A stretch of DNA of 64,000 nucleotides from a virus. Lineage: Duplodnaviria > Caudoviricetes. Shown here in pieces: positions 2,575-34,074 of this stretch. The notes below the pieces were generated by a model, which saw nothing but the letters and a program-made list of their open reading frames with translations, ran no database searches and was not told the DNA's origin. Each line of letters opens with the position of its first letter. Positions within the stretch are counted from its first letter, which is position 1. A program made the position numbers and the translations under genes. The stretch covers positions 15,614 to 79,613 of the IMG/VR virus record IMGVR_UViG_3300017909_001210. One strand, 5' to 3'.

Positions 2575-2786
2575 TGAAAGATATTGAGTATGTAAAAGTT
2601 GAAGGTCACTCACACTTAGTGAGGGACGATAGTTCTCAAGGAATTGTTAATACGGATATAGAACAATATAAATTAACAATGAAACGTAGAGAAATCATGA
2701 GGAATACTCGTGAGGAGATAAATAAATTAAAGGGTGACATGGACGAGATTAAATCTATGTTAACACAACTTATAGAGAAAGTATAA
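2574..2786 (+). CDS. Conserved small hypothetical protein with coiled-coil C-terminus
   Basis: 70 aa, stop/start coupled to both neighbours; VKVEGHSHLVRD motif typical of the gene following DUF4815 in marine T4-like phages. Confidence 0.65.
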   Translation: MKDIEYVKVEGHSHLVRDDSSQGIVNTDIEQYKLTMKRREIMRNTREEINKLKGDMDEIKSMLTQLIEKV

Positions 2787-4003
2787 TGGCAAAAACAGTA
2801 GACCAATTTTCAACGATAGAAAATTTTAGAACCAAGTATAACGAACTCGCAGTTGACGTTGGTGATAAGAGTGGCCTTAGAACAGAAGAAACTGGAAACC
2901 TTGTCGATGCACTTAATAGTTTAGAAGATAAATCATTCTTCTTTCAAGAGTTTAAGTATAGTGCAACTAGTGGTCAAACTGTATTCTCAGGTAATGATTC
3001 TGCAAACAATTCACTTGTTTTTAGAAGTGAAAGAATCCAAGTATTTAAAAACTCAGACCATTTACTTTTAGGAACAGATTACTCAATCGGTGGTGTAGAC
3101 GGAAACAAACATACAGAAATTACACTTAACGTAGGTGCAACGACTGGTGACGTTATCACTATCTATGCATATACAGGTTCATACTTAGGAAGTGCAATTG
3201 GTGCTGGTGGTGGAACAGACGGACAGTTTACTGAAACAGCTGCAAATACTATTTACAATAAAAACTCAAATGGTATAATATTAAATGGTTCTTCAACTGG
3301 AAGAACAACTACACTTACAACAAGTGCAAAAATAGAATTTGATTCTAATAATACAGGTATCTATTCACAAGAAGATATTACACTTGCAACTGGTAAGAGT
3401 GTCACTGCAGACTCCTTTGTGGGTGATTTAACTGGAACTGTCACTGGTAATGTCACTGGAAATGTCACTGGAAATATTTCAGGTAGTTCAGGAACAGTCA
3501 CAAGTATATCTTCACATTCTGCAAGTGGATTATCAGACATTAATTATACCACAACACCTACAAATGGTCAAATCCTTACATGGGATAATGCAAACGGATA
3601 TTGGGAACCAGCAGATAATCAATCTCTTTCTACATTAAGTGGTGATACAGATGACCTTACAGAAGGAACAACAAATCTGTTTTCAACTACAGAAAGAATT
3701 CAAGATGCAGCCGCAACAATGATTACAAGTGCAACACATAGTAATATATCAGTATCATATGATGATGCCTTAGGAACACTTTCATTTACTGCTGGTGCAA
3801 CATATACAGACTCAGACGCAAGAAGTGCGATTGCTGGTGGTGACGGACTTGCATATAATTCTTCAACAGGAAATATGAGTGTTAACACTGCAAAAGGAAT
3901 CGAAATAAATAATGATACAGTTGAATTAGACTATGAAACGACTTCTACTGCCCCAAGTTCTGCTTCGGGAACTGTAGAAGGTCATTTATGGTTTGTGATA
4001 TGA
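2786..4003 (+). CDS. Tail fibre/whisker-like protein
   Basis: G/T/S-rich with GNVT repeats; N-terminal FRTKYNEL helix; C-terminal TAPSSASGTVEGHLWFVI. Confidence 0.7.
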   Translation: MAKTVDQFSTIENFRTKYNELAVDVGDKSGLRTEETGNLVDALNSLEDKSFFFQEFKYSATSGQTVFSGNDSANNSLVFRSERIQVFKNSDHLLLGTDYSIGGVDGNKHTEITLNVGATTGDVITIYAYTGSYLGSAIGAGGGTDGQFTETAANTIYNKNSNGIILNGSSTGRTTTLTTSAKIEFDSNNTGIYSQEDITLATGKSVTADSFVGDLTGTVTGNVTGNVTGNISGSSGTVTSISSHSASGLSDINYTTTPTNGQILTWDNANGYWEPADNQSLSTLSGDTDDLTEGTTNLFSTTERIQDAAATMITSATHSNISVSYDDALGTLSFTAGATYTDSDARSAIAGGDGLAYNSSTGNMSVNTAKGIEINNDTVELDYETTSTAPSSASGTVEGHLWFVI

Positions 4004-4004
4004 T

Positions 4005-5345
4005 ATGTCAGACGAAATTTACATTAATATAGGAAGTTCTTTCCAACAACCTTACCAAGGTCAAACACCTACCCAAGCTCAGTCTGCAGAGGTTAAACAG
4101 ATTGTAAAGAGAACACCTGCTAATACTCAAACACTTTATCAGAGTCCAAGTCGGACTCCTTCAACATATAGAAATCCAGTAAATAGACAAACAAATATAG
4201 ATGCACAAGAGAGTAATCCGTTTACTTTTAATGCACAACAACAGATAGATTATCAAAGTCCTTTTAGAAGTCCTTCGATAACACAAGTAATTGCACAACA
4301 ACCAAGTCCTTATATTGCACAAAGTGAATATCAAAATCCTTTTACTTTTCAACAAGACGTTCAGAATACTGTTGAGGTTCAAAGTGGATATCAAGCTCAA
4401 CAACCATATCAAACTCAATTATCTGTTCAACAGGTAGGGCCTGTTTCCGTGCGAACTTTGCAAATGTATAGATACCCTTATGCATATTGGTATCAATGGA
4501 ATGATGCTAAGTTTAAAGAACCCATCGACTCTGAAATTATAATGTATCAAGGGCCTCGAGGTGATTTAGATGATACCATGGGTTATGCCCAAGCAAGAGG
4601 TATTTCACAAAACCCAGTAATTCTGCAAGGTGTAATAACTCGATATCCTCAACCAGTTCCAGTAAGTGGTCAGGTGCCAAGTCCAACCCCTATCTCATAT
4701 CAATATTTGGGACAACCCATTCAGTATCAGTATATCACACAGGTTGCTGGGACACCATATACCATTCAAAGGGAGGTTTATCAGTCAACAAATCCAGTGC
4801 GAACTCAAACCCCAGCTAGAAGTCGGACTCCTGCTCAACAACCTTTGATTGCGCAATCACCTTCTACAACTCCAGTTCCAGCAAGACAACCTTTAAGACA
4901 ACCATTGGAACTTCAACAACAGATAACTATTCAAGCAGACCAAGACGTTCAAAACCAAGTTAGAGCTCCTGCTAGACAACCAAGTCCATATATTGCACAG
5001 GCACAACAACAAAGTCCGTATATTGCACAACAACCTTCTACATATAGAAACCCAGTGAATAAACAGACTAATACTCAGAATGATACAAGACAACCTAATA
5101 TCTATCAGGTTCCTTATCAAGTTCCGTATATACATAGGTCACCTTACATAACTCAAACACCTTATTCTACAAGTAGAACTGTCGGCCCCATTGCAAAGGT
5201 GAAAGCAATTTATCTAAATAAAGACGGACAAAATATTGAAAAAATAGACCAAGTTTACGTAAATAACTCAGGAACAATTGAGAAAATTCACCAAACTGTT
5301 CCTGCCGCAAGATTTAGTAAGAATCCAAGTAATACTCAACAATAA
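4005..5345 (+). CDS. Q/P/Y-rich repeat protein, probable fibre-tip/adhesin
   Basis: 446 aa; internal repeats STYRNPVNxQTN, QPSPYIAQ, QDVQN; C-terminal KVKAIYLNKDG...DQVYVNNSG domain; directly follows a fibre gene. Confidence 0.6.
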   Translation: MSDEIYINIGSSFQQPYQGQTPTQAQSAEVKQIVKRTPANTQTLYQSPSRTPSTYRNPVNRQTNIDAQESNPFTFNAQQQIDYQSPFRSPSITQVIAQQPSPYIAQSEYQNPFTFQQDVQNTVEVQSGYQAQQPYQTQLSVQQVGPVSVRTLQMYRYPYAYWYQWNDAKFKEPIDSEIIMYQGPRGDLDDTMGYAQARGISQNPVILQGVITRYPQPVPVSGQVPSPTPISYQYLGQPIQYQYITQVAGTPYTIQREVYQSTNPVRTQTPARSRTPAQQPLIAQSPSTTPVPARQPLRQPLELQQQITIQADQDVQNQVRAPARQPSPYIAQAQQQSPYIAQQPSTYRNPVNKQTNTQNDTRQPNIYQVPYQVPYIHRSPYITQTPYSTSRTVGPIAKVKAIYLNKDGQNIEKIDQVYVNNSGTIEKIHQTVPAARFSKNPSNTQQ

Positions 5346-10538: not shown

Positions 10539-12124
10539 TGACAGCTAAGAACTTTATAATCAAGAATGGTCTTACAGTCGGGACAACAGAGGTTATAGAC
10601 AGTTCAGGTAGACTTACGGGTTCTGCCATAACTGATTCGATTGACGATAGAGTCAATACCCTCTTGACTGCGGGAACAGGTATAACATTAACATATGACG
10701 ATAGTGCAAACACACTAACAATTGACGGACAAACTGGTGATGTGACTGGAGTCACTGCTGGAACAGGTCTATCAGGTGGTGGTTCATCAGGTGACGTTTC
10801 ACTTGCTATCGACTACAGTGCAACTTGGGGAGGTAATTTAATCCCTGATGGAAACGAAACAAGGGACTTAGGTTCTACAAGTGCAAGGTGGAATGACTTA
10901 TACCTTGCTGGTTCAACTATTAACTTAGGTGGAACAGAACTTTCAAAAGACTCAGACGGAAATATTGAGATGTCTGCAAGTGGAACATTGAAATCACTTA
11001 AAGTTGCAGAAATCGAAATTGGAACAGGAGATGACGTTCTTGTTCTTAAAAGAGATAGTAATGGTAAACTTCAATCAAGAAGTAAGAACAAAACTTCAAG
11101 AACAGAAACAGCTGCAGATGTAGATTTATCTAATAACGATTCAGATGACCTTTCAGAAGGGTCAAGCAACCTCTATTACACTGATGCACGTGTTCAAACA
11201 TTCTTAGGTGGTGGTTCACTTGCTGGTAATGTCATACCAGCTGCTGATAACACATATGACTTAGGTTCATCTTCAAGAATGTGGAAGGACGTATATATCG
11301 GGCCAGGTTCATTATATGTTAATGGTCAGAAAGTGGTTGAAGATAACTCAGGAACAATCGTTGTTTCTGCAGACGATAACCAAAACGTTTCTGTTCAAAC
11401 AGGTGGTTCAGGTGACGTAGAACTTGACCCAACAGGAACAGGTGTTATCCAAATTAAAGGAACACTTCAAATCGAAGACGGACAAAACATTACTAACAGT
11501 GCTGGAAATGAAATATCTTTCGGAAACAATATAACAGTTGACCAAATTGCATCTAAATCAACAGACACTAACTTAGTATTAAGTGGTAATGGAACAGGTA
11601 ATGTCACATTAAATGACAATGTTGCAATTACAGGTGACTTAACAGTTTCAGGAACTACAACGACTGTAAACTCAGAAACTATTTCACTTGCAGATAACGT
11701 AATTGCATTAAACAGTAATTTCACTTCAGGTTCACCAACAGAAGATTCAGGTATTAGTATCACTAGAGGTGGTTCTTCTGCTAAGACACTTCTTTGGGAC
11801 GAAACAAATGACAAATGGACTGTAGGTTCAGAAACTTTTGTTGCTGGAACTTTCGAAGGAAACCTAACTGGAAATGTCACTGGAAATGTCATTGGAGATG
11901 TCACTGGAGACTTAACAGGAACAGCTTCAAGTGCAACCCTTGCTACAAATGCTCAAGGATTGACTGGAACTCCAAATATTTCAGTTGGAACAATTGCCTC
12001 AGGTGCTATTACTATCACCAATGCAACAAACAGTGGTGGAACTGCTAGAAACGTTTACCAATCAACATCAGCTCCTGCTTCAGGTGATGGTGCGGTTGGT
12101 GATTTGTGGATTCTTTACTCCTAA
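10538..12124 (+). CDS. Tail fibre protein
   Basis: G/T/S-rich; DLGSTSARWNDLYL and DLGSSSRMWKDVYI repeats; GNVT repeats; C-terminal SAPASGDGAVGDLWILYS. Confidence 0.75.
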   Translation: MTAKNFIIKNGLTVGTTEVIDSSGRLTGSAITDSIDDRVNTLLTAGTGITLTYDDSANTLTIDGQTGDVTGVTAGTGLSGGGSSGDVSLAIDYSATWGGNLIPDGNETRDLGSTSARWNDLYLAGSTINLGGTELSKDSDGNIEMSASGTLKSLKVAEIEIGTGDDVLVLKRDSNGKLQSRSKNKTSRTETAADVDLSNNDSDDLSEGSSNLYYTDARVQTFLGGGSLAGNVIPAADNTYDLGSSSRMWKDVYIGPGSLYVNGQKVVEDNSGTIVVSADDNQNVSVQTGGSGDVELDPTGTGVIQIKGTLQIEDGQNITNSAGNEISFGNNITVDQIASKSTDTNLVLSGNGTGNVTLNDNVAITGDLTVSGTTTTVNSETISLADNVIALNSNFTSGSPTEDSGISITRGGSSAKTLLWDETNDKWTVGSETFVAGTFEGNLTGNVTGNVIGDVTGDLTGTASSATLATNAQGLTGTPNISVGTIASGAITITNATNSGGTARNVYQSTSAPASGDGAVGDLWILYS

Positions 12125-12143
12125 TCTAGGGGTTTAGAATCTT

Positions 12144-12151
12144 TATAAATA
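12144..12151 (+). promoter_or_regulatory. T4-type late promoter TATAAATA
   Basis: Exact consensus upstream of the repeat-protein cluster. Confidence 0.7.
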
Positions 12152-12178
12152 TGAGAACTTTTAACGGGAAATAACTAA

Positions 12179-12751
12179 ATGGCAATCGGAATTACACAAC
12201 AACCTTACATTGCAAGTGCTCAGCAGCCTTTTTCATTCCAAAGTCCGTTTACGTATAGTGCAAGGTATCCTGCTAACGCACAACAACCCGTGTCGTATCA
12301 GTCACCTTTTACGTATAATGCAAGGTATCCAGCGAATGCTCAACAACCAGTGACATATAGGTCACCATTTACCTATAGAGTTCCATATCGTGCAAATGCA
12401 AGACAACCATTTACTTACAGAAACCCATTTACATATAGGGTTCCATACCAAGCAAATGCAAGACAACCTTTTACATATAACTTTAGGTCACCATTCACTT
12501 ACAGAAACCCAAGTAATGCTAGACAACCTTCTGAGTATCAACATAGAAGTCCGTTTACTTACCAAAATCCAGTGAATGCACAAGAACCTAATATAAGAAA
12601 TGCTCAGACACCATTTACATATAGTAATAGACAACCATTTACATATAGTAATAGACAACCAGCAACATATGCGACTCAAGGAAGAACTCCTGAAGCAAGG
12701 TGGGACGGAGTAGTATCACAACAGTGGCCTGGGTCACCAATAACAGGATAA
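12179..12751 (+). CDS. PFTY/ANAxQP repeat protein
   Basis: 190 aa made almost entirely of (S/N/T/Q)PFTY and (Y)PANA(Q/R)QP repeats. Confidence 0.7.
   Translation: MAIGITQQPYIASAQQPFSFQSPFTYSARYPANAQQPVSYQSPFTYNARYPANAQQPVTYRSPFTYRVPYRANARQPFTYRNPFTYRVPYQANARQPFTYNFRSPFTYRNPSNARQPSEYQHRSPFTYQNPVNAQEPNIRNAQTPFTYSNRQPFTYSNRQPATYATQGRTPEARWDGVVSQQWPGSPITG
12611..12660 (+). repeat. Perfect 24-nt tandem duplication (PFTYSNRQ x2)
   Basis: CCATTTACATATAGTAATAGACAA repeated twice. Confidence 0.85.
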
Positions 12752-12759
12752 TATAAGAC

Positions 12760-13980
12760 ATGGCATCAGGAAATCAATCAGTCAAGACACCTACAGGTTG
12801 GAATGCGACCCAAGGTGCATGGGTTAAAACTGGTTCTTCTACGTGGAGTGCAGTTGACCAAATCTATATCAAAACACCTTCAGGGTGGAATAATGCTTCG
12901 GGTCAAGAACTTACACAAGTTCCATACCCTTATATTGCAAACAGTCAAACACCATATATTGCAAATGGTCAACAACCTTATATTGCAGATGCAAGACAAC
13001 CTTCTGAGTATCAACATAGGTCACCATTTACATATAGAAATCCAGTAAATGCTCAAGAACCTAACATTAGGAATGCACAAACACCATTTACATATCAGAA
13101 TCCAGTAAATGCACAACAACCTAATATTAGAGATGCACAAAACCCATTTACATACGAAAACAGATATCCTGCGAATGCTCAGTCACCAAGTAATGCACAA
13201 AACCCATTCACTTATGACGCAAGGTATCCTGCGAATATTCAACAACCAGTAGCATTTAGGTCACCTTTCACATATCGTGTGCCTTATATTGCTAATGCTA
13301 GACAACCAGTAGCATTTAGGTCACCTTTCACATATCGTGTGCCTTATATTGCTAATGCTAGACAACCTGTTAGTGGAAGGAATCCATTTACATATAACAA
13401 TAGGGCTGCGGTGTCTTACTTCTATCCTGACCCATCGCCTGGTGGTGGTGGTGGTGGCGGTTGCTTCGTCGCTGGGACACCTATTCTTATGCATGACGGA
13501 ACAACAAAACCAATTGAGTCAATCGTATTGGGTGACCAAATTAAAGTTTGGAGTGAGGAAGGTCAAATTGTTAAAGAAGTTGAAAAACTTATGTCACCAA
13601 GACCTACTAAAGTTGTTAACCTCGTTATTGCAAATGAAAACGGAGATACAGTTGCAGAATTAGGAACAACAAAAGACCACCCATTCAAACTAGTAGACGG
13701 AACATGGGGTGTTGTAGATACTGAATATTGGAAAGAATCTCACCCTCAGTTTGAAAATACTGAACAATTGTATGGTGAAGAATTAAATGAAGTCAATCTA
13801 AAAGTTGGTGATAAACTTCAATCAGTTTGGGGTTCTGCAGTTCTAAAAGATATTATTGATACTGGTGAAGAAAAAGAAGTATACCATATATTAGAAGTAG
13901 GTAATTTCTATACAGACGGAGTTGTCGCACATAACATGGTGAAACAAATCTTCGATCCCATCGACAATGAGAGATTCTAG
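12760..13980 (+). CDS. PFTY-repeat protein with N-terminal W-rich docking-like domain and C-terminal Hint (intein-like) domain
   Basis: GWNATQGAWVKTGSSTWSAVDQIYIKTPSGW N-terminus; the same repeats as 12179; Gly7 linker then CFVAGT...TTKDHPF...VYHILEVGNFYTDGVVAHN. Confidence 0.8.
   Translation: MASGNQSVKTPTGWNATQGAWVKTGSSTWSAVDQIYIKTPSGWNNASGQELTQVPYPYIANSQTPYIANGQQPYIADARQPSEYQHRSPFTYRNPVNAQEPNIRNAQTPFTYQNPVNAQQPNIRDAQNPFTYENRYPANAQSPSNAQNPFTYDARYPANIQQPVAFRSPFTYRVPYIANARQPVAFRSPFTYRVPYIANARQPVSGRNPFTYNNRAAVSYFYPDPSPGGGGGGGCFVAGTPILMHDGTTKPIESIVLGDQIKVWSEEGQIVKEVEKLMSPRPTKVVNLVIANENGDTVAELGTTKDHPFKLVDGTWGVVDTEYWKESHPQFENTEQLYGEELNEVNLKVGDKLQSVWGSAVLKDIIDTGEEKEVYHILEVGNFYTDGVVAHNMVKQIFDPIDNERF
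13242..13367 (+). repeat. Perfect 60-nt tandem duplication (QPVAFRSPFTYRVPYIANAR x2)
   Basis: 13242-13301 is identical to 13302-13361, with 6 further matching nt. Confidence 0.9.
13462..13935 (+). other. Hint domain (bacterial intein-like), 158 aa
   Basis: Block A CFVAGT at 13462, block B TxxH (TKDH), terminal His-Asn at 13930-13935; the next residue is Met; no homing endonuclease. Confidence 0.85.
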
Positions 13981-14022
13981 AGGTTTAATTAAACCTTATT
14001 AGAACTTCCCTAAATATATATT

Positions 14023-15576
14023 ATGAAACAACTGAAAACCTTAGAAGAAGTCCGCTCAACTATTCAACCTATAGACTATAAAACTTTAAGTAGTGCTGAT
14101 TGGTATAACCTAGGTGCATATCATTTAGGAACTATAGACGATATAAGTGACGTTGATAAAGAGTCAGACGTATATAAAAATTTTAAATGGGTGTTTGAAA
14201 ATATTGCACCACCTACTAAAGTAATTAAATGGGGTGATATTTTAGAACTTCGTAAACAGAAGAAATTTGTTCCCTTCTTTGGTGCCTCAAACGAATCAGT
14301 TCATTATCAAAAATTCTTACCACACGTATGGACTTGTAAAGAAAGACCAAATAAAATTACAGGTCAGATGGATTGTGCAAGGATAGTTGACGGAGAACCC
14401 GAATATGCACAAATCAAAGATTATGTAGAGTTTGAACCTAATACAGAAATCACACCTCAGACTGAAACCTCTCTAAATTCAATGTATTATCATAGTGCAA
14501 AAGCACATTGGTTAATTCAAAGTATACAAGAAGAAGGTTTGAGACACCCAATTCAAGGAACAACATTTAAAATTGACGATAGATTTGGTTTTAGAATTCA
14601 CCCAGGCTCTATAAGGTCAAAAGTATACGAAGAATTAGAAGACCCTACTTTTGAAATTTTTGCAACAGACCCTTGGGACGTATTAGATACAGAACCCTTA
14701 ACGTGTGACGAAGCACTGGAATATTGGACTAAAAAGTTAAACGAGAGAAAAAAAAAAAAAAAAAATACGTCCATAACTTTCGTTAATGGTGTTATAGAAT
14801 ATCAACATGATTTAATGGATTTAAGTTTCAGAAAAGAAGTGTATGCATTTAACAAAAGAGTTCACTTACAATCAAAAGGAAAACCTTTAAACATTTACAT
14901 AGGTTATGATTCAAACCATGGTGACTTACACGAAGTAAATAAGAAGACAATTCTAAAAACACTACAACCTGGCCGTGGTCACCTTATGAAAGAGTGTCAT
15001 TGGGAACCCGAAATCAAATTCCTTGACATTGCAAAACTTCCCGATTATAATAGAGAGTATGCAAATCAATCAACAGAGTTTACTTACAGTAGATTTTTAA
15101 TCCCCTACTTAGAAAACTATGAAGGGTTTAGTATCTTTATTGATAATGACTTCATATGGAGAAAATCTATTTTATCATTGTTCTATTATCTGAATATGGA
15201 CGATGCAGTTGCATGTATCAAGTATCCACAAATCAAACATGACGAAACTAAATTTGACGGACAAGTAAATATAGATTATCCATGTAAGTTATGGTCATCA
15301 TTAATGATATTTAATAATGGACATGAAGACTGTAAGAAGTTAACACCTGAAGTAGTGAACACTTGGACGGGAGCCCAATTACATCAATTTGAGTGGACTG
15401 ATAAGATAAGTTCAATACCTGAAAAGTATATCTTTACTGAAGGTTATGATAATCCTGATGAGAAGTGGGATTACACTGGAATACACTACACTAGGGGAGG
15501 CCCTTGGATAAAAGGTATGGATTATTCCAACATAAATAATTTAGATATTTGGGTAAAGGCAAAAACCTACTTGTAA
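14023..15576 (+). CDS. Glycosyltransferase (GT-A, GT8-like C-terminal domain) fused to a ParB/Srx-like N-terminal region
   Basis: C-terminal NIYIGYDS...STEFTYSRFLIPYL...IFIDNDF (DxD)...WSSLMIFN...IHYTRGGPW; N-terminal LIQSIQEEGLRHPIQG...RIHPGSIR. Confidence 0.75.
   Translation: MKQLKTLEEVRSTIQPIDYKTLSSADWYNLGAYHLGTIDDISDVDKESDVYKNFKWVFENIAPPTKVIKWGDILELRKQKKFVPFFGASNESVHYQKFLPHVWTCKERPNKITGQMDCARIVDGEPEYAQIKDYVEFEPNTEITPQTETSLNSMYYHSAKAHWLIQSIQEEGLRHPIQGTTFKIDDRFGFRIHPGSIRSKVYEELEDPTFEIFATDPWDVLDTEPLTCDEALEYWTKKLNERKKKKKNTSITFVNGVIEYQHDLMDLSFRKEVYAFNKRVHLQSKGKPLNIYIGYDSNHGDLHEVNKKTILKTLQPGRGHLMKECHWEPEIKFLDIAKLPDYNREYANQSTEFTYSRFLIPYLENYEGFSIFIDNDFIWRKSILSLFYYLNMDDAVACIKYPQIKHDETKFDGQVNIDYPCKLWSSLMIFNNGHEDCKKLTPEVVNTWTGAQLHQFEWTDKISSIPEKYIFTEGYDNPDEKWDYTGIHYTRGGPWIKGMDYSNINNLDIWVKAKTYL
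14748..14765 (+). repeat. A18 homopolymer inside the glycosyltransferase gene
   Basis: 18 consecutive A, read in frame as R-KKKKK-N, upstream of the GT domain. Confidence 0.85.
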
Positions 15577-15606
15577 TTTTTATAACATTGAGGTATAATA
15601 TAAAGT

Positions 15607-16170
15607 ATGAACGCATTAATTTATACAGAAGACAGTAAACTTATAGTCCGAAAGGAAAATGGTTTACAATATGATTTTGAAAACGTAGATAGACCTGAAT
15701 TGGGTTTTGACTTTGACGTATTAGTTTATGACGATGTTGAAGTTAAGATTTTAAAATGGGAAGACGGAAAACAATTTGACGAACAAGAACATACTGCATT
15801 GACAGAAGAAGACAGACTTAGTATTGAAACATATATCAAAAATTCTGAACCACCTTTGGGATATAATTTAAATCAACAATATATCAATCAATTGGAACAA
15901 CTTGTGTTAGATTATCAAACACAATGTTCTGAATTGTATGGAATGTATGATTTATTATATGCAAATGTAGCTGGAAGAGAAGGGTCAAATCACCCTAGAC
16001 GTTCTGATGCAAGAAGAGCATTAGAATATTTTGATAACATATGGTTTTGTTTTGAAAATGTGGTTGCAGAAATTCAACAAACAAGAGAAGATACTTTAAA
16101 GAGTTTTGACCACTATGCTGGTGCAATTCCCGACCCTTTAGTGACTCCCGACTCTAGGTCAAATAGGTAA
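15607..16170 (+). CDS. Hypothetical protein, tail-fibre-assembly/chaperone-like C-terminus
   Basis: YDLLYANVAG...NHPRRSDARRALEYFDNIW resembles the YDxIxxAxxY...HP...EA...WxDxVW pattern of phage fibre-associated proteins. Confidence 0.4.
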   Translation: MNALIYTEDSKLIVRKENGLQYDFENVDRPELGFDFDVLVYDDVEVKILKWEDGKQFDEQEHTALTEEDRLSIETYIKNSEPPLGYNLNQQYINQLEQLVLDYQTQCSELYGMYDLLYANVAGREGSNHPRRSDARRALEYFDNIWFCFENVVAEIQQTREDTLKSFDHYAGAIPDPLVTPDSRSNR

Positions 16171-16173
16171 TGT

Positions 16174-16911
16174 ATGGAACTCATTTATCATAATGAGTCC
16201 TTTAAACTAAAAGACGTAGGATTCCCATTAAAAGATATTCATATTATTGATGATTGGTTGCCTGTGCAATTACACCATTGGGTTAACAGGTCAGTTAGTG
16301 CTAATAATATTTGGTCAAAAAATAACCAAGTCACTGGAGATAGTCCTACAGGTTTACCTCATCACCAATTTTGGGGTGCAACTATGATGAAGGGAACCAA
16401 TTCGAGTTTGATAGACGTAGGAAATTATCCCGATACAGACCTCGATATTAATCAATATCTAGACACTAAGATATGTGCAAAATGGTTAGATAGAAAACTA
16501 CAAACTGATTTTGGTTTTGAATGGGTAAGGTTTCAATACATGGGATTAAATTCACAAACACAAGGTTTACATGGAACAACTCATGCAGATTGTATGCAAG
16601 AAGACGAATGGAATTTATCTTTTTTATATTATACAAATACTATATGGTCAGAACATTGGGGAGGCCCTTTGAGAATCTATGACGAAATGCAACAAGGTTT
16701 ACATGGTCGTGCAAATCATATAAAGAATCACCAAATTGCAGAGATTCCTTTCAAACCAAATAGATTAGTAGTGTTTGACGGAAGAATACCACATGGTGCC
16801 GATGCACCCACTCAAGAAGCACGATATATAGATAGGAAGTCAATCGTAATACGAGGTGACGAAATTAGATTAGTAGAAGACGATTATTGGTTTAGACAAT
16901 GCCCACAATAG
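16174..16911 (+). CDS. 2OG-Fe(II) oxygenase
   Basis: HxD (THADC), distal His (RIPHGAD), 2OG-binding Arg (RKSIV); WGG and FKPNRLVVFDG segments. Confidence 0.8.
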   Translation: MELIYHNESFKLKDVGFPLKDIHIIDDWLPVQLHHWVNRSVSANNIWSKNNQVTGDSPTGLPHHQFWGATMMKGTNSSLIDVGNYPDTDLDINQYLDTKICAKWLDRKLQTDFGFEWVRFQYMGLNSQTQGLHGTTHADCMQEDEWNLSFLYYTNTIWSEHWGGPLRIYDEMQQGLHGRANHIKNHQIAEIPFKPNRLVVFDGRIPHGADAPTQEARYIDRKSIVIRGDEIRLVEDDYWFRQCPQ

Positions 16912-17810
16912 AATTTAGCACATTTAATGAAGATACTCTCAAGGACTCTAAACCAGTTCTTGCAAAATCTGTAAAACCTGAATGGTGGAATAAAATGAAA
17001 TTCCGTGAGTATAATCGTGGAATTAAACAAGCAACAATACGTTCATGTCCTGCTATGGACGATTGGTTAAAGAGTGGTTGGTATTTATTATCTAATAGAG
17101 ATATTATTGTGAAGAATGCTAGACTTGATGGTGATACAGATGACCATTGGGTTGCAACACATGAGTTTGACGGAGGAACAGAAATGCCTTCACCTACACA
17201 CCCTTCTGCACAAATGGGATATGCATTTCAATATTTACATGATGAAGATGCACCAGTTAAGGGTGCATTTAAAATGAGAAATCCATGGAACATAAAAACA
17301 CCGCCTGGTTATTCAACGTTTTACTTAGACCCATTTTTATTTCAAAACAAATATTTTGCAACATGGCAAGGTGTAATAGATACAGATACCTTTAATACAA
17401 ATTACGATAATGCACAAATTATCTTTTATCCACGTGTAAATCATTCCTTCGTTATACCAAAAGGAACTCCTCTAGTTCAAGTCATACCATTTAAAAGAGA
17501 GGAATGGCAGTCAACCTACATAACATATGACCACCAATCTTGGTTAGACAATAGAAGTCATATTACAAATAATTCAGGTAATAAAAGTATGGACGAATTT
17601 AATAGACAAATAGATACCTCTCAAACAGCTAGGGATAAAAATGACAAACTAGGTGGTTATAGAATGGGTAAAATGCACAAACAAAAGGGTAAAAATTTTA
17701 ATGAAGGAAATCCACCACCTGAATGTCCTATGCATAGTGCTGTTGATGACGCTGCAGATGTGATGTCAGGTTATGAAAAACAATTAGAGTTAGATTTAGA
17801 TAATGATTAG
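16899..17810 (+). CDS. DUF6065-like protein often found beside phage 2OG oxygenases
   Basis: IRSCPAMDDWLKSGW...NPWNIKTPPGYS...GVIDTD...IPKGTPLVQVIPFKRE. Confidence 0.55.
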   Translation: MPTIEFSTFNEDTLKDSKPVLAKSVKPEWWNKMKFREYNRGIKQATIRSCPAMDDWLKSGWYLLSNRDIIVKNARLDGDTDDHWVATHEFDGGTEMPSPTHPSAQMGYAFQYLHDEDAPVKGAFKMRNPWNIKTPPGYSTFYLDPFLFQNKYFATWQGVIDTDTFNTNYDNAQIIFYPRVNHSFVIPKGTPLVQVIPFKREEWQSTYITYDHQSWLDNRSHITNNSGNKSMDEFNRQIDTSQTARDKNDKLGGYRMGKMHKQKGKNFNEGNPPPECPMHSAVDDAADVMSGYEKQLELDLDND

Positions 17811-18501
17811 ATTATTATTTCCATATGTCTGTATCGAAGACAACTTATTAGAGACTGGTCAACTAGAACAAGACTATATTGATTTACTTAAAAATGAAAT
17901 AGACTCTATGAGAAAGACAGACCCAGTAGGAAGAAGAATATCCAATCAATACACTGGTTGGCAATCAAATGACGGGTGTGAGTCAAGTCCTATCTTTACT
18001 AAATTGTTGAGAATTATCAATCATAAGTTTAATACAGAATTACTTAATTATACTGGACATAGTTCTAGTGAAGTTCAGTTAAACATTTCAAATTCATGGG
18101 CAAACATAAATGATAAAGGTGCATGGAACGCTCCACACTTACATAATGGTTGTTGGTATAGTGGTGTATTCTATGTCCATTCAGAAGGAGATGAAGGGAA
18201 CTTTGTTGCACTCGATAAAGACCCAAAGGTAGTTTCAGATTTTCCCCATTCACCAAGAGAAAGTCAAACCTTTAGACTTGCACCTAGAACTGGTCACTTA
18301 TTTCTTTTTCCAAGTGCATTAATGCATATGGTAGAACCTAACCAAACTGATAAAGATAGATATAGTATATCATTTAATATGAATACTCGGTATTTAACCA
18401 AACAACTCCCCGTAGGTGGTGACCCTAAAGGTTTTCACCCTGATGAATTGTGTTTTGAAGTAGATAATAACGGAAAACTTATACATAAACTCTCTACATA
18501 G
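17803..18501 (+). CDS. Putative 2OG-Fe(II) oxygenase (TIGR02466-like)
   Basis: SWANIN...NAPHLH...SGVFYV...LFLFPSALMHMVEPN...RYSISFN. Confidence 0.8.
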   Translation: MIRLLFPYVCIEDNLLETGQLEQDYIDLLKNEIDSMRKTDPVGRRISNQYTGWQSNDGCESSPIFTKLLRIINHKFNTELLNYTGHSSSEVQLNISNSWANINDKGAWNAPHLHNGCWYSGVFYVHSEGDEGNFVALDKDPKVVSDFPHSPRESQTFRLAPRTGHLFLFPSALMHMVEPNQTDKDRYSISFNMNTRYLTKQLPVGGDPKGFHPDELCFEVDNNGKLIHKLST

Positions 18502-18526: not shown

Positions 18527-18787
18527 ATGGAAATTGTAATAGACGCTCATATTATATGGAATGTTATCTTAACATTTATACTAATGCCTGTAGGTTTTTT
18601 AGTTAGAAACATTCTATCAGAACAAAAAAGACTTGATATACTAGTCAACAAAACACGTGAAGAAATTGCACGTGATTACGCAACTAGAGAACAAATCGAA
18701 GCAGATTTCCAAAGAATTATGGATTCAATTGAAAGATTATCAGAAAAATTAGATAGAATCCAATCTAAAACTTATTTCCAAGATTAA
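18527..18787 (+). CDS. Small protein with N-terminal TM helix and coiled coil
   Basis: Hydrophobic WNVILTFILMPVGFLV followed by heptad-like charged sequence. Confidence 0.6.
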   Translation: MEIVIDAHIIWNVILTFILMPVGFLVRNILSEQKRLDILVNKTREEIARDYATREQIEADFQRIMDSIERLSEKLDRIQSKTYFQD

Positions 18788-18793
18788 AATTAC

Positions 18794-18801
18794 TATAAAT
18801 A
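18794..18801 (+). promoter_or_regulatory. T4-type late promoter TATAAATA
   Basis: Exact consensus before gp13. Confidence 0.75.
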
Positions 18802-18823: not shown

Positions 18824-19639
18824 ATGTCAGAACCGAATTCAAAAGCAGCCTTAAAAGAATATATCAAGAGAAAACTTGGAGCTCCAGTTCTAGAAATTAA
18901 CGTGGACGATGACCAGTTTGACGATAGAATCGATGAGGCACTACAATATTTCAGAGAATTCCATTACGATGGTTCTATTAAGACATTTTTAAAACACCAA
19001 ATCACTCAAGAAGAGATTGATTCATTCAAAACGAATGAAACTCATAATGCAGCGACAACTGGAACACATGCAATCTCAGGACAAACTTACGGAGAGGGTC
19101 AAAACTACATTACACTACCCGAACACGTGTTAAGTGTAATCAATATTTTCCCTTTCAATTCAGGTCAAACTTCAAGTATGTTTGATATCCAGTATCAATT
19201 AAGATTGAATGATTTATATGATTTAACTTCAACAAGTGTTTTATACTATTCACAAGTTCAATCACACTTGTCACTTTTAAACGATATCCTAGTGGGTCAG
19301 ATACCTATTAGATACAATATGCATTCTAACAGACTTTACATGGACTACAGTGCAAGTAAATTAAGTGCTGGTGAGTATATCATTATTGAATGTTATAGAA
19401 AATTAGACCCAACAGACATGACTGATATCTATAATGATATGTGGTTGAAAAAGTATTCAACTGCATTAGTGAAGTATCAATGGGGAGAGAACCTCTCTAA
19501 ATTCCAAGGAGTTGAGTTGCCTGGTGGTATAACACTAGACGGAGCTCAAATGAAAACAGAAGCACAAGAAGAGATAACTAAATTAGAAGAAGAATCCCGA
19601 CTGAATTTCGAAATGCCAGTCATGGATATGATGGGGTAA
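18824..19639 (+). CDS. gp13: Neck protein gp13
   Basis: LKEYIKRKLGAPVLEINVDDDQ...WLKKYSTALVKYQWGENLSKFQGVELPGG; position in the T4 gene order. Confidence 0.92.
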   Translation: MSEPNSKAALKEYIKRKLGAPVLEINVDDDQFDDRIDEALQYFREFHYDGSIKTFLKHQITQEEIDSFKTNETHNAATTGTHAISGQTYGEGQNYITLPEHVLSVINIFPFNSGQTSSMFDIQYQLRLNDLYDLTSTSVLYYSQVQSHLSLLNDILVGQIPIRYNMHSNRLYMDYSASKLSAGEYIIIECYRKLDPTDMTDIYNDMWLKKYSTALVKYQWGENLSKFQGVELPGGITLDGAQMKTEAQEEITKLEEESRLNFEMPVMDMMG

Positions 19640-32941: not shown

Positions 32942-33385
32942 ATGACTTTAGATGAAATTAAAAAAGAGTGGGAAAAGGATTGTGAGATAGACGATATCGA
33001 ATTAGATAAATCGTCTTTAGAAGTTCCTAAACTCCATGCAAAATATCAAGACTTATTGTCTAGTAAGATTCTTGTTATGAAACAGTATCAATTCAAATAT
33101 GATACACTTCTAAAGAATAAGTGGTTGTGGTATAACGGAAAAATGTCACAAGAACAAATTAATGAATTGGGTTGGTCAGACGACCCTTTAGACGGATTAA
33201 AGATTATGAAAAATGATTTACAAATTTTCTATAATTCTGATAAAGATATTCAAGAACTCAATGCAAAAATCGAATACTTAAAAGTCACAATAGATTATCT
33301 CAAAGAGTGTATGCAAAATATCACTTGGAGACACCAAACGATTAAGAATACAATCGATTGGAGAAAATTCATGGCGGGGTCATAA
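32942..33385 (+). CDS. uvsY: Recombination mediator UvsY
   Basis: ESLxVPKLHAKY-like SSLEVPKLHAKY; ITWRHQTIKNTIDWRKFMAG. Confidence 0.9.
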   Translation: MTLDEIKKEWEKDCEIDDIELDKSSLEVPKLHAKYQDLLSSKILVMKQYQFKYDTLLKNKWLWYNGKMSQEQINELGWSDDPLDGLKIMKNDLQIFYNSDKDIQELNAKIEYLKVTIDYLKECMQNITWRHQTIKNTIDWRKFMAGS

Positions 33386-34074
33386 TGCCACTACACGAAA
33401 AACATGTTTGGATTGCAGAAGCATTTTTCACACCTTCAGAAGTAGATTCTATACTTGCAGTTGCAAATAAAAAAGATTGGGACGAAGGAAAGGTTGGTTT
33501 TAATGGTGGACAAGACCCTGATGCACAAGAATCTGATAGTGGTGCAGTAAATAGTGAAATCAGACAATCACAAGTTAAATGGTTAATGGTTGACGAAATG
33601 AACGAAGAGTTTCACAAAAAACTCTATTCTGCAGTTCAATATGCCTGTGGAGATAATCATTGGAACTGGGAATTTACTAATTGGGAAAATTATCAATTTA
33701 CAAATTATACTGCAAAACCAAATTTACCTAAAGGTGATTTTTATACTTGGCATACTGATGCAGGCCCACCAACACGTTCATCTTATGAAGACGGAAGTAT
33801 TCGTAAATTAAGTTGCACAATTCAATTATCAGACCCCGATGATTATGAGGGTGGTTTATTTCAATGGTTAGAACCGACTCATACTTTCGATAGAATTCAA
33901 TTGGGTCAGAGAACAGTTGGTTTAGATGATATGACTAAGACAGCACCATTTAGTGCAAAGACACGTGGTTCTATTATTCTATTTCCTTCAGACGTTCACC
34001 ACCAAGTCACACCCGTGACACGTGGTTCTAGAAATTCATTAGTAGGTTGGTTGTTAGGACTACCCTATAAGTAA
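33385..34074 (+). CDS. 2OG-Fe(II) oxygenase (prolyl-hydroxylase-like)
   Basis: YTWHTDAG, RKLSCTIQLSDPDDYEGG, FPSDVHHQVTPVTRGSRNSLVGW; probable start ATG 33385. Confidence 0.88.
   Translation: MPLHEKHVWIAEAFFTPSEVDSILAVANKKDWDEGKVGFNGGQDPDAQESDSGAVNSEIRQSQVKWLMVDEMNEEFHKKLYSAVQYACGDNHWNWEFTNWENYQFTNYTAKPNLPKGDFYTWHTDAGPPTRSSYEDGSIRKLSCTIQLSDPDDYEGGLFQWLEPTHTFDRIQLGQRTVGLDDMTKTAPFSAKTRGSIILFPSDVHHQVTPVTRGSRNSLVGWLLGLPYK

Follow-up and report, generated by a model that had tools for sequence, protein, structure and literature searches.

Phage adhesins and fibers made of glycine- or proline-rich extended strands exist, for example gp38 of the S16-type phages. The Skp1 pathway of Dictyostelium and Toxoplasma uses the prolyl hydroxylase PhyA and glycosyltransferases, and L230 of mimivirus is a collagen hydroxylase and glucosyltransferase. 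Two further precedents come from the literature, each as cited in a later article. For mycobacteriophages, virion glycosylation is attributed to Freeman et al. 2023 (cited in PMC12619734). For the chlorovirus PBCV-1, a prolyl 4-hydroxylase (P4H) and proline-rich peptide substrates are attributed to Eriksson et al. 1999 (cited in PMC7019647), and PMC7019647 states that no hydroxyproline was found in PBCV-1 virions. Here we analyze a 64,000-nucleotide stretch of DNA (the window; positions 15,614 to 79,613 of IMG/VR record IMGVR_UViG_3300017909_001210) from an uncultured marine T4-like myophage. The source is a 79.6-kb viral contig with an estimated completeness of 44%. Our subject is a pair of adjacent repeat genes, rep1 and rep2, and the cassette of enzyme and accessory genes that follows them. 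The two repeat proteins most likely pair into one thin antiparallel two-chain fiber, a conclusion that we draw from their sequences.

A preliminary description of this stretch had called two PFTY-type repeat proteins, and both are genuine. The first, rep1 (12179..12751; coordinates are those of the window, and all features given here lie on the + strand), has 190 amino acids (aa) with 22 or more proline-punctuated modules and a conserved C-terminal motif, RWDGxxSQQWPxxPI(T/S). The second, rep2 (12760 to 13980), has 406 aa. It starts with a 55-aa N-terminal domain (12760..12924) that is nearly invariant in the family, continues with a repeat region of 22 modules (12916..13440) and a Gly7 linker (13441..13461), and ends with a 158-aa Hint domain and a short tail. 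The repeat unit in both proteins is (R/Q)xPxx(Y/F/A), and some units have 2 to 4 extra residues. At the DNA level the repeats have 60-nt and 24-nt periods with a 74 to 100% match (TRF).

To compare the two arrays, we cut rep1 and rep2 two residues ahead of each periodic proline. Read from N to C in rep1 and from C to N in rep2, the strings of module lengths are identical over 22 of 22 modules. None of 20,000 shuffled controls reached 22; the shuffle maximum was 15, and the best parallel run was 12. The modules also correspond in kind. Each PFTY six-mer stands opposite a PxNA-type six-mer, the PFTYxx eight-mers stand opposite PY(I/R/Q)ANA, and PV(S/T)Y stands opposite PVAF.

The same correspondence holds across the family. 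We gathered 80 related loci via rep2 and 78 more via the glycosyltransferase (GT) gene of the cassette, for about 150 contigs. In 79 distinct rep1/rep2 pairs from these loci, with 25 to 73 modules, a single unbroken antiparallel run takes in a median of 90% of the modules (59/62, 68/72, and 69/73 modules are examples). Every one of the 2,250 matched modules has a length of 6, 8, or 10 residues. Among the 920 pairs of six-residue modules, 683 are bulky-small and none is bulky-bulky. Position 3 of the six-residue modules is always Pro, and position 5 is Thr, Asn, or Ser in 89%. Because the arrays vary threefold in size yet keep their mirror symmetry, these data are strong covariation evidence for antiparallel, in-register pairing.

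A 35-aa block is common to rep1 and rep2 (12518-12622 and 12991-13095). Its module lengths, 8, 6, 6, and 8, are palindromic, and in the antiparallel alignment the block lies opposite its own copy in the other chain.

We suggest that rep1, as chain B, and rep2 together build a single fiber in which the two chains run antiparallel and in register. Each chain would be a string of 6-, 8-, or 10-residue modules with one proline at a fixed place, and bulky PFTY-type modules would face small PxNA-type modules. The even module spacing suggests a two-residue structural period, such as that of a beta-ribbon. The antiparallel arrangement would set the conserved N-terminal domain of rep2 beside the conserved C-terminal motif of rep1, and this end is probably the one that docks to the virion. 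At the far end, the poly-Gly stretch and the variable C-terminal module of rep2 would lie beside the N terminus of rep1. The gp38-type adhesins resemble the pair in having a conserved attachment domain, a repetitive extended region, and a variable tip. However, two separate genes with mirror-image module strings and bulky/small complementarity are involved here, and we know of no described fiber with such a two-gene antiparallel code.

The Hint domain of rep2 (13462..13935) runs from Cys235, directly after the Gly7 linker, to Asn392 and is followed by a 14-aa tail that starts with Met. Its motif residues, Cys235, T304 and H307 (TKDH), and H391/N392, are invariant or nearly so in 24 homologues. 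The family profile matches bacterial intein-like (BIL) domains at E values of 1.7e-12 and 1.8e-10, and also mini-inteins. Like the BIL domains of known structure (2lwy; 6y75/6tmm), it has Cys1, TxxH, and a terminal His-Asn, lacks an endonuclease, and measures about 158 aa. It differs from them in its place at the C-terminal end of a phage repeat fiber chain, after poly-Gly, and in being optional in its family. In the window protein the terminal Asn is followed by Met, and in the homologues mostly by Phe, Gly, Leu, or Arg, within a short, nonconserved tail. Canonical splicing is not expected, because this residue is not Cys, Ser, or Thr, and we rejected a canonical splicing intein on that ground. 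The preliminary description had called the domain autoprocessing; the Hint motifs agree with it, the nucleophile for splicing is missing, and the motifs make it most likely that the domain in the window phage would cut itself off at Gly-Cys without splicing.

Only about one-third of the loci have the Hint domain, which therefore is no constant component of any system. In the others, rep2 closes with a short tail that follows the poly-Gly or with a beta-rich domain. The latter, of about 200 aa, was seen in the rep2 homologues of seven loci (L054, L060, L074, L075, and L083 to L085). At least three kinds of such beta-rich domain occur, which is what one would expect of a distal tip that can be exchanged. 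The antiparallel two-chain repeat fiber, with an optional and presumably self-cleaving Hint domain, is the best-supported new content of the stretch.

Five fiber-like genes lie upstream of rep1, and gp13, gp14, and gp15 lie downstream of the cassette. The open reading frames (ORFs) of the preliminary description are all present at its coordinates, on one strand. It had placed the repeat genes after the last fiber gene and a late promoter, and a T4-type late promoter box, TATAAATA, indeed lies at 12144..12151, 28 nt upstream of rep1. Its statement that the cassette ends just before gp13 is also correct. An 86-aa ORF is followed by gp13 at 18824 (phrog_211, 3.2e-48), with a second TATAAATA box at 18794..18801. 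The window holds 15 exact boxes against 5.6 expected, all on the + strand, and there is no further exact box between those at 12144 and 18794. The gp13 neck protein is about 51% identical to that of the pelagimyophages Mosig and HTVC008M and 49% identical to that of Methylophilales phage Melnitz and of cyanomyophages. In an annotated phage collection, neither the region (megablast) nor rep2 (tblastn) gave any match, so this collection holds no near relative.

Among 70 related loci, an exact late box precedes the first repeat gene in about 16 and gp13 in 47, and in five a late box separates the repeat genes from the GT gene. We rejected the idea of a single transcript defined by the late boxes, since box conservation is too soft. 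Contigs from salt-marsh metatranscriptomes match most of 12100-18230 with 90 to 99% likeness. Such RNA-library contigs cannot reveal transcription level, ends, or strand, and we did not use them as support.

A third repeat protein, rep0 (4005-5345; 446 aa, Gln/Pro/Thr-rich), follows the fiber gene at 2786-4003, and relatives often have two genes there. A simple proline-spacing test, which considers spacing only, revealed no palindromic module string in rep0.

The first gene of the cassette (14023-15576) encodes a 517-aa GT fusion, which the preliminary description had called a ParB-like/GT8-like fusion. The GT8-like half is well founded. This domain (14878..15576), a retaining enzyme of the GT-A type, has an invariant DxD motif (D374 and D376). 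Its predicted fold matches the GT8 protein 3tzt with a Z of 14.4 (root mean square deviation 3.2, 185 aligned residues) and LgtC with a Z of 14.3. Protein glycosylators are among its fold neighbors: GlyE (Z 13.7), the Skp1 galactosyltransferase 6mw8 (Z 13.3), glycogenin (Z 12.8), and A64R of PBCV-1 (Z 11.5). Eight of 14 members of the GT fusion family match PF01501, with a best E value of 5.3e-5; the bit scores listed, which come from more distant homologues, reach at most 23.7 against a cutoff of 24.3 bits. The profile of the family found no match among solved structures, and a search from a distant homologue (first query P0145) returned the same lineage only.

The ParB-like half is less certain. 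The N-terminal domain of the fusion (aa 1 to 285; 14023..14877; pLDDT, the model's local confidence measure, of 93) has an invariant motif, H193-P-G-S-x-R198. Its top Foldseek matches are all ParB/Srx proteins at weak E values (0.03 to 0.1), which points to a possible ParB/Srx-like core. It has no Pfam match, and a VIA-align wide search found no fold match with a Z of 5 or more. We therefore adopted neither the name ParB nor that of a new fold. It is a rare domain: 1.84 billion representatives include only 33 clusters with it, and in nearly all cases GT8 is its fusion partner. A complex prediction of the GT fusion with residues 1 to 130 of rep2 scored 0.00; the partner's own fold was uncertain, and this outcome speaks neither for nor against binding.

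A run of 18 adenines (14748-14765) encodes KKKKKK in the linker between the N-terminal and GT8 domains. It seems particular to the window contig, since L008, the closest relative, lacks the run at this place. The RNA-library contigs seem to be cut around this tract, at 14737-14775.

The cassette contains two 2-oxoglutarate (2OG)-Fe(II) oxygenases, as had been proposed. The first, ox1 (16174..16911; phrog_274), matches PF13640 at an E value of 6.5e-9 and 37.1 bits, above the 27-bit cutoff. Its iron triad and 2-oxoglutarate arginine (H137-x-D139, H207, and R221) are invariant in 14 sequences. Searched against solved structures, the ox1 profile matches only prolyl hydroxylases, and weakly: 6t8m at an E value of 0.013, then Tpa1 and PHD2 (E > 0.1). 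The second, ox2 (17803..18501), belongs to the PF13759/phrog_81 type common in marine myophages. It matches PF13759 at 1.5e-20 and 73.9 bits (cutoff, 27 bits), and H112, H114, H175, and R186 are invariant. Its solved relatives, 3bvc and 2rg4, are uncharacterized proteins from structural genomics.

A search for bacterial homologues of ox1 found only four contigs, all with the same phage cassette and binned into metagenome-assembled genomes. These contigs (L090 to L093, one of them 121 kb) carry the labels Sphingobacteriales, Verrucomicrobiales, Flavobacteriales, and Flavobacteriaceae, and reflect either misbinning or a hint at the host group. The ox1 homologue of one related locus (L068, 14736-15980) has a 170-aa N-terminal extension that matches no family.

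Three further genes complete the cassette. The 187-aa protein o187 (15607..16170) is conserved and belongs to no family. The preliminary description had called it fiber-chaperone-like, and there is a weak lead to tail fiber assembly proteins: its Atlas feature leads lie at 0.83 to 0.87, under the 0.9 lead threshold, and the lead of 0.87 is to Caudo_TAP_N. DUF7222 matches it at an E value of 0.046, and its profile finds nothing meaningful among solved structures. The label DUF6065-like, given to o303 (16899..17810; phrog_7084), is at best a weak fit. It describes 16% of one neighboring Atlas cluster and one of 14 members (E value of 0.026), and the window protein itself does not match PF19541. 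Against solved structures, the o303 profile has one weak match (E value of 0.16), to a "phage particle protein." The 86-aa o86b (18527..18787; phrog_462), a small membrane protein, has a hydrophobic N terminus and a helical tail, and its gene is always the last before gp13.

Gene order is constant in every related locus that reaches far enough: last fiber gene, two repeat genes, GT fusion, o187, ox1, o303, ox2, o86b, gp13. The cassette enzymes are 43 to 97% identical across these loci. One sublineage (L033, at 13965-15257, and also L043, L044, and L046) has an extra 430-aa ORF between o303 and ox2, with no Pfam or PHROG match. The preliminary description had named the co-occurrence of the repeat genes with the GT and oxygenase genes as a check. 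This co-occurrence is perfect in about 150 contigs; however, it does not discriminate, because the whole structural module is syntenic. The fibers and neck genes are conserved in order to the same degree, and co-occurrence thus cannot separate partnership from shared descent.

Oxygenase genes are also frequent elsewhere in these phages. Two relatives that are 81 to 83% complete have five to seven 2OG oxygenases per genome, most of them far from the cassette. One relative (G002) has a cluster of four at 35.9 to 39.5 kb. In the window, a further 238-aa ORF (33358-34074) matches PF13759 weakly (E value of 7.6e-4).

Phages outside the lineage fill the same slot differently. Between the fibers and gp13, Mosig and HTVC008M have at least four 2OG oxygenases, which in Mosig include one phrog_274 member (the ox1 family, 4.8e-32) and two phrog_81 members (the ox2 family). 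These pelagimyophage clusters, and the multicopy oxygenases of cyanomyophages, resemble the cassette in slot, in the phrog_274 and phrog_81 families, and in the presence of several copies per genome. They differ in their neighbors, which are ferrochelatase in both pelagimyophages and heme oxygenase and pcyA in Mosig, and they lack the repeat proteins, the GT fusion, o187, and o303. The slot oxygenases are 25 to 31% identical to ox2. Homologues of rep1 and rep2 were absent from Mosig and HTVC008M at E values up to 1, and the same queries did find their targets in the window's contig. In other phages, the closest homologues of the GT domain are stand-alone enzymes of 220 aa; in Mosig and DLP_6 their genes are next to ribonucleotide reductase (RNR), among methyltransferases and other transferases. 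As for o303, its homologues neighbor ThyA and DNA polymerase in haloviruses, and in cyanophage S-RIM4 the neighbor is RNR. At the level of families, then, the enzymes occur independently of the repeats in Mosig, HTVC008M, DLP_6, S-RIM4, and haloviruses, a pattern that the preliminary description had itself counted as contrary to its proposal. Adjacency in the fiber-to-neck slot is not evidence of partnership, given that in sister phages members of the same oxygenase families occupy it and the repeats are missing.

The explanation that we favor, at slightly better than even confidence, is that a mirror-paired fiber lies beside a lineage-conserved late cassette, the two being neighbors but not shown to be partners. 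The GT8 fusion, o187, ox1, o303, ox2, and o86b would together form this cassette, and its place would be the fiber-to-neck slot, where 2OG oxygenases and accessory genes are found in other marine T4-like phages as well. There is about an even chance, in our judgment, that the cassette acts on targets other than the fiber, such as host proteins, small molecules, or glycans; fiber decoration is a possible but less probable target. Several points weigh against the favored explanation. The ribbon geometry is deduced and not taken from a structure of the pair. The related sequences are not independent, which makes the number of pairs larger than that of separate events. The cassette keeps its genes and their order in about 150 contigs, a stability well beyond that of a typical accessory island. 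Finally, the fusion of the N-terminal domain to GT8 is almost confined to the lineage, which fits an enzyme tuned to a lineage-specific substrate.

The preliminary description had proposed that the proline-rich repeats are hydroxylated and then glycosylated. In its full form this would make the cassette a dedicated fiber-tailoring operon. One or both of ox1 and ox2 would hydroxylate the periodic prolines (or Asn/Arg), the GT8 fusion would add a sugar to the new hydroxyl or to Thr/Tyr, and o187 would help in assembly, with a decorated fiber as the outcome. The gene products present and their chemistry would allow it. The genes are tight or overlapping on one strand with no internal late box, they co-occur perfectly with the repeat pair, and the six-residue modules offer a fixed Pro and a frequent Thr, Asn, or Ser. 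The prolyl hydroxylase matches of ox1, the protein-glycosylating fold neighbors of the GT, its lineage-specific N-terminal domain, and the mycobacteriophage precedent point the same way. However, the co-occurrence is confounded by whole-module synteny, Mosig has the same oxygenase families in the same slot without repeats, relatives have several oxygenases per genome, and homologues of the GT and o303 lie elsewhere in nonstructural neighborhoods. Also counting against it are the five related loci with a late box after the repeat pair and ahead of the GT gene, and the PBCV-1 virions in which, by the account in PMC7019647, hydroxyproline was not found. We consider such an operon possible but doubtful. 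The idea stays alive because the chemistry is compatible and the GT fusion is specific to the lineage.

The locus resembles PBCV-1 in encoding a P4H-type oxygenase together with proline-periodic repeat proteins; PBCV-1 differs in being a eukaryotic virus with no adjacent GT, and the P4H affinity of ox1 is weak. With the Skp1 pathway it shares the best profile match of ox1, 6t8m (deposited as a prolyl 4-hydroxylase subunit alpha, which we take to be a PhyA-type enzyme), and 6mw8 among the top GT fold matches. The Skp1 pathway, however, modifies one proline of a single cytoplasmic protein, and the likeness is at the level of fold and family only. If the fiber is tailored, the locus would also resemble mycobacteriophages and mimivirus L230, in which virus enzymes decorate the virus's own structural proteins. 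There the modifications were shown experimentally, whereas here we have genes alone, and the enzyme families and substrates differ. An extended version, in which the pair forms a two-gene "protein zipper" ribbon whose regularly spaced Pro, Thr, and Asn are hydroxylated and glycosylated by the cassette, and in which some phages use the Hint thioester, at the end with the poly-Gly, to cap the ribbon or to link it covalently to its partner chain, seems to us unlikely.

A cassette whose target late in infection is the host envelope or a small molecule, by glycan remodeling or metabolite hydroxylation unrelated to virion proteins, is quite improbable. GT8 relatives do include lipopolysaccharide enzymes such as LgtC, the solved PF13759 relatives leave room for such a role in being uncharacterized, and such a role is what the slot contents of the sister phages suggest, since the slot neighbors in pelagiphages are metabolic genes; against this, none of the cassette enzymes was noted to have a signal peptide or a membrane anchor, and nothing points positively to any particular substrate. 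The last explanation is a modification of DNA or nucleotides after the manner of phage TET/glycosyltransferase hypermodification, with a base that is first hydroxylated by the oxygenases and then glycosylated by the ParB/Srx-like+GT fusion. It can draw on the weak ParB/Srx-like signal and on the homologues of o303 and the GT beside nucleotide and DNA genes or methyltransferases, but we consider it highly improbable, given that ox1 and ox2 have no Tet_JBP or AlkB-type Pfam match, that the two relatives 81 to 83% complete have no thymidylate-synthase-like hydroxymethylase, that the cassette lies within a late structural operon, that no helix-turn-helix DNA-binding part was found, and that the weak ParB/Srx signal of the N-terminal domain came with no fold match at a Z of 5 or more.

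The lineage that carries this locus is common in marine metagenomes. It appears in hundreds of contigs from seawater, salt-marsh, and other marine samples, with at least 412 rep2 homologues. If the cassette decorates the fiber, tailed phages would have their first example of a pathway that hydroxylates and glycosylates a virion part, and a role would emerge for some of the many 2OG oxygenases in marine myophages that are so far unexplained. Apart from any tailoring, the mirror-matched pair represents a simple sequence code, with even module lengths and bulky residues opposite small ones, for long two-chain fibers of adjustable length. Such a code is relevant to fiber assembly, to host recognition, and to protein design.

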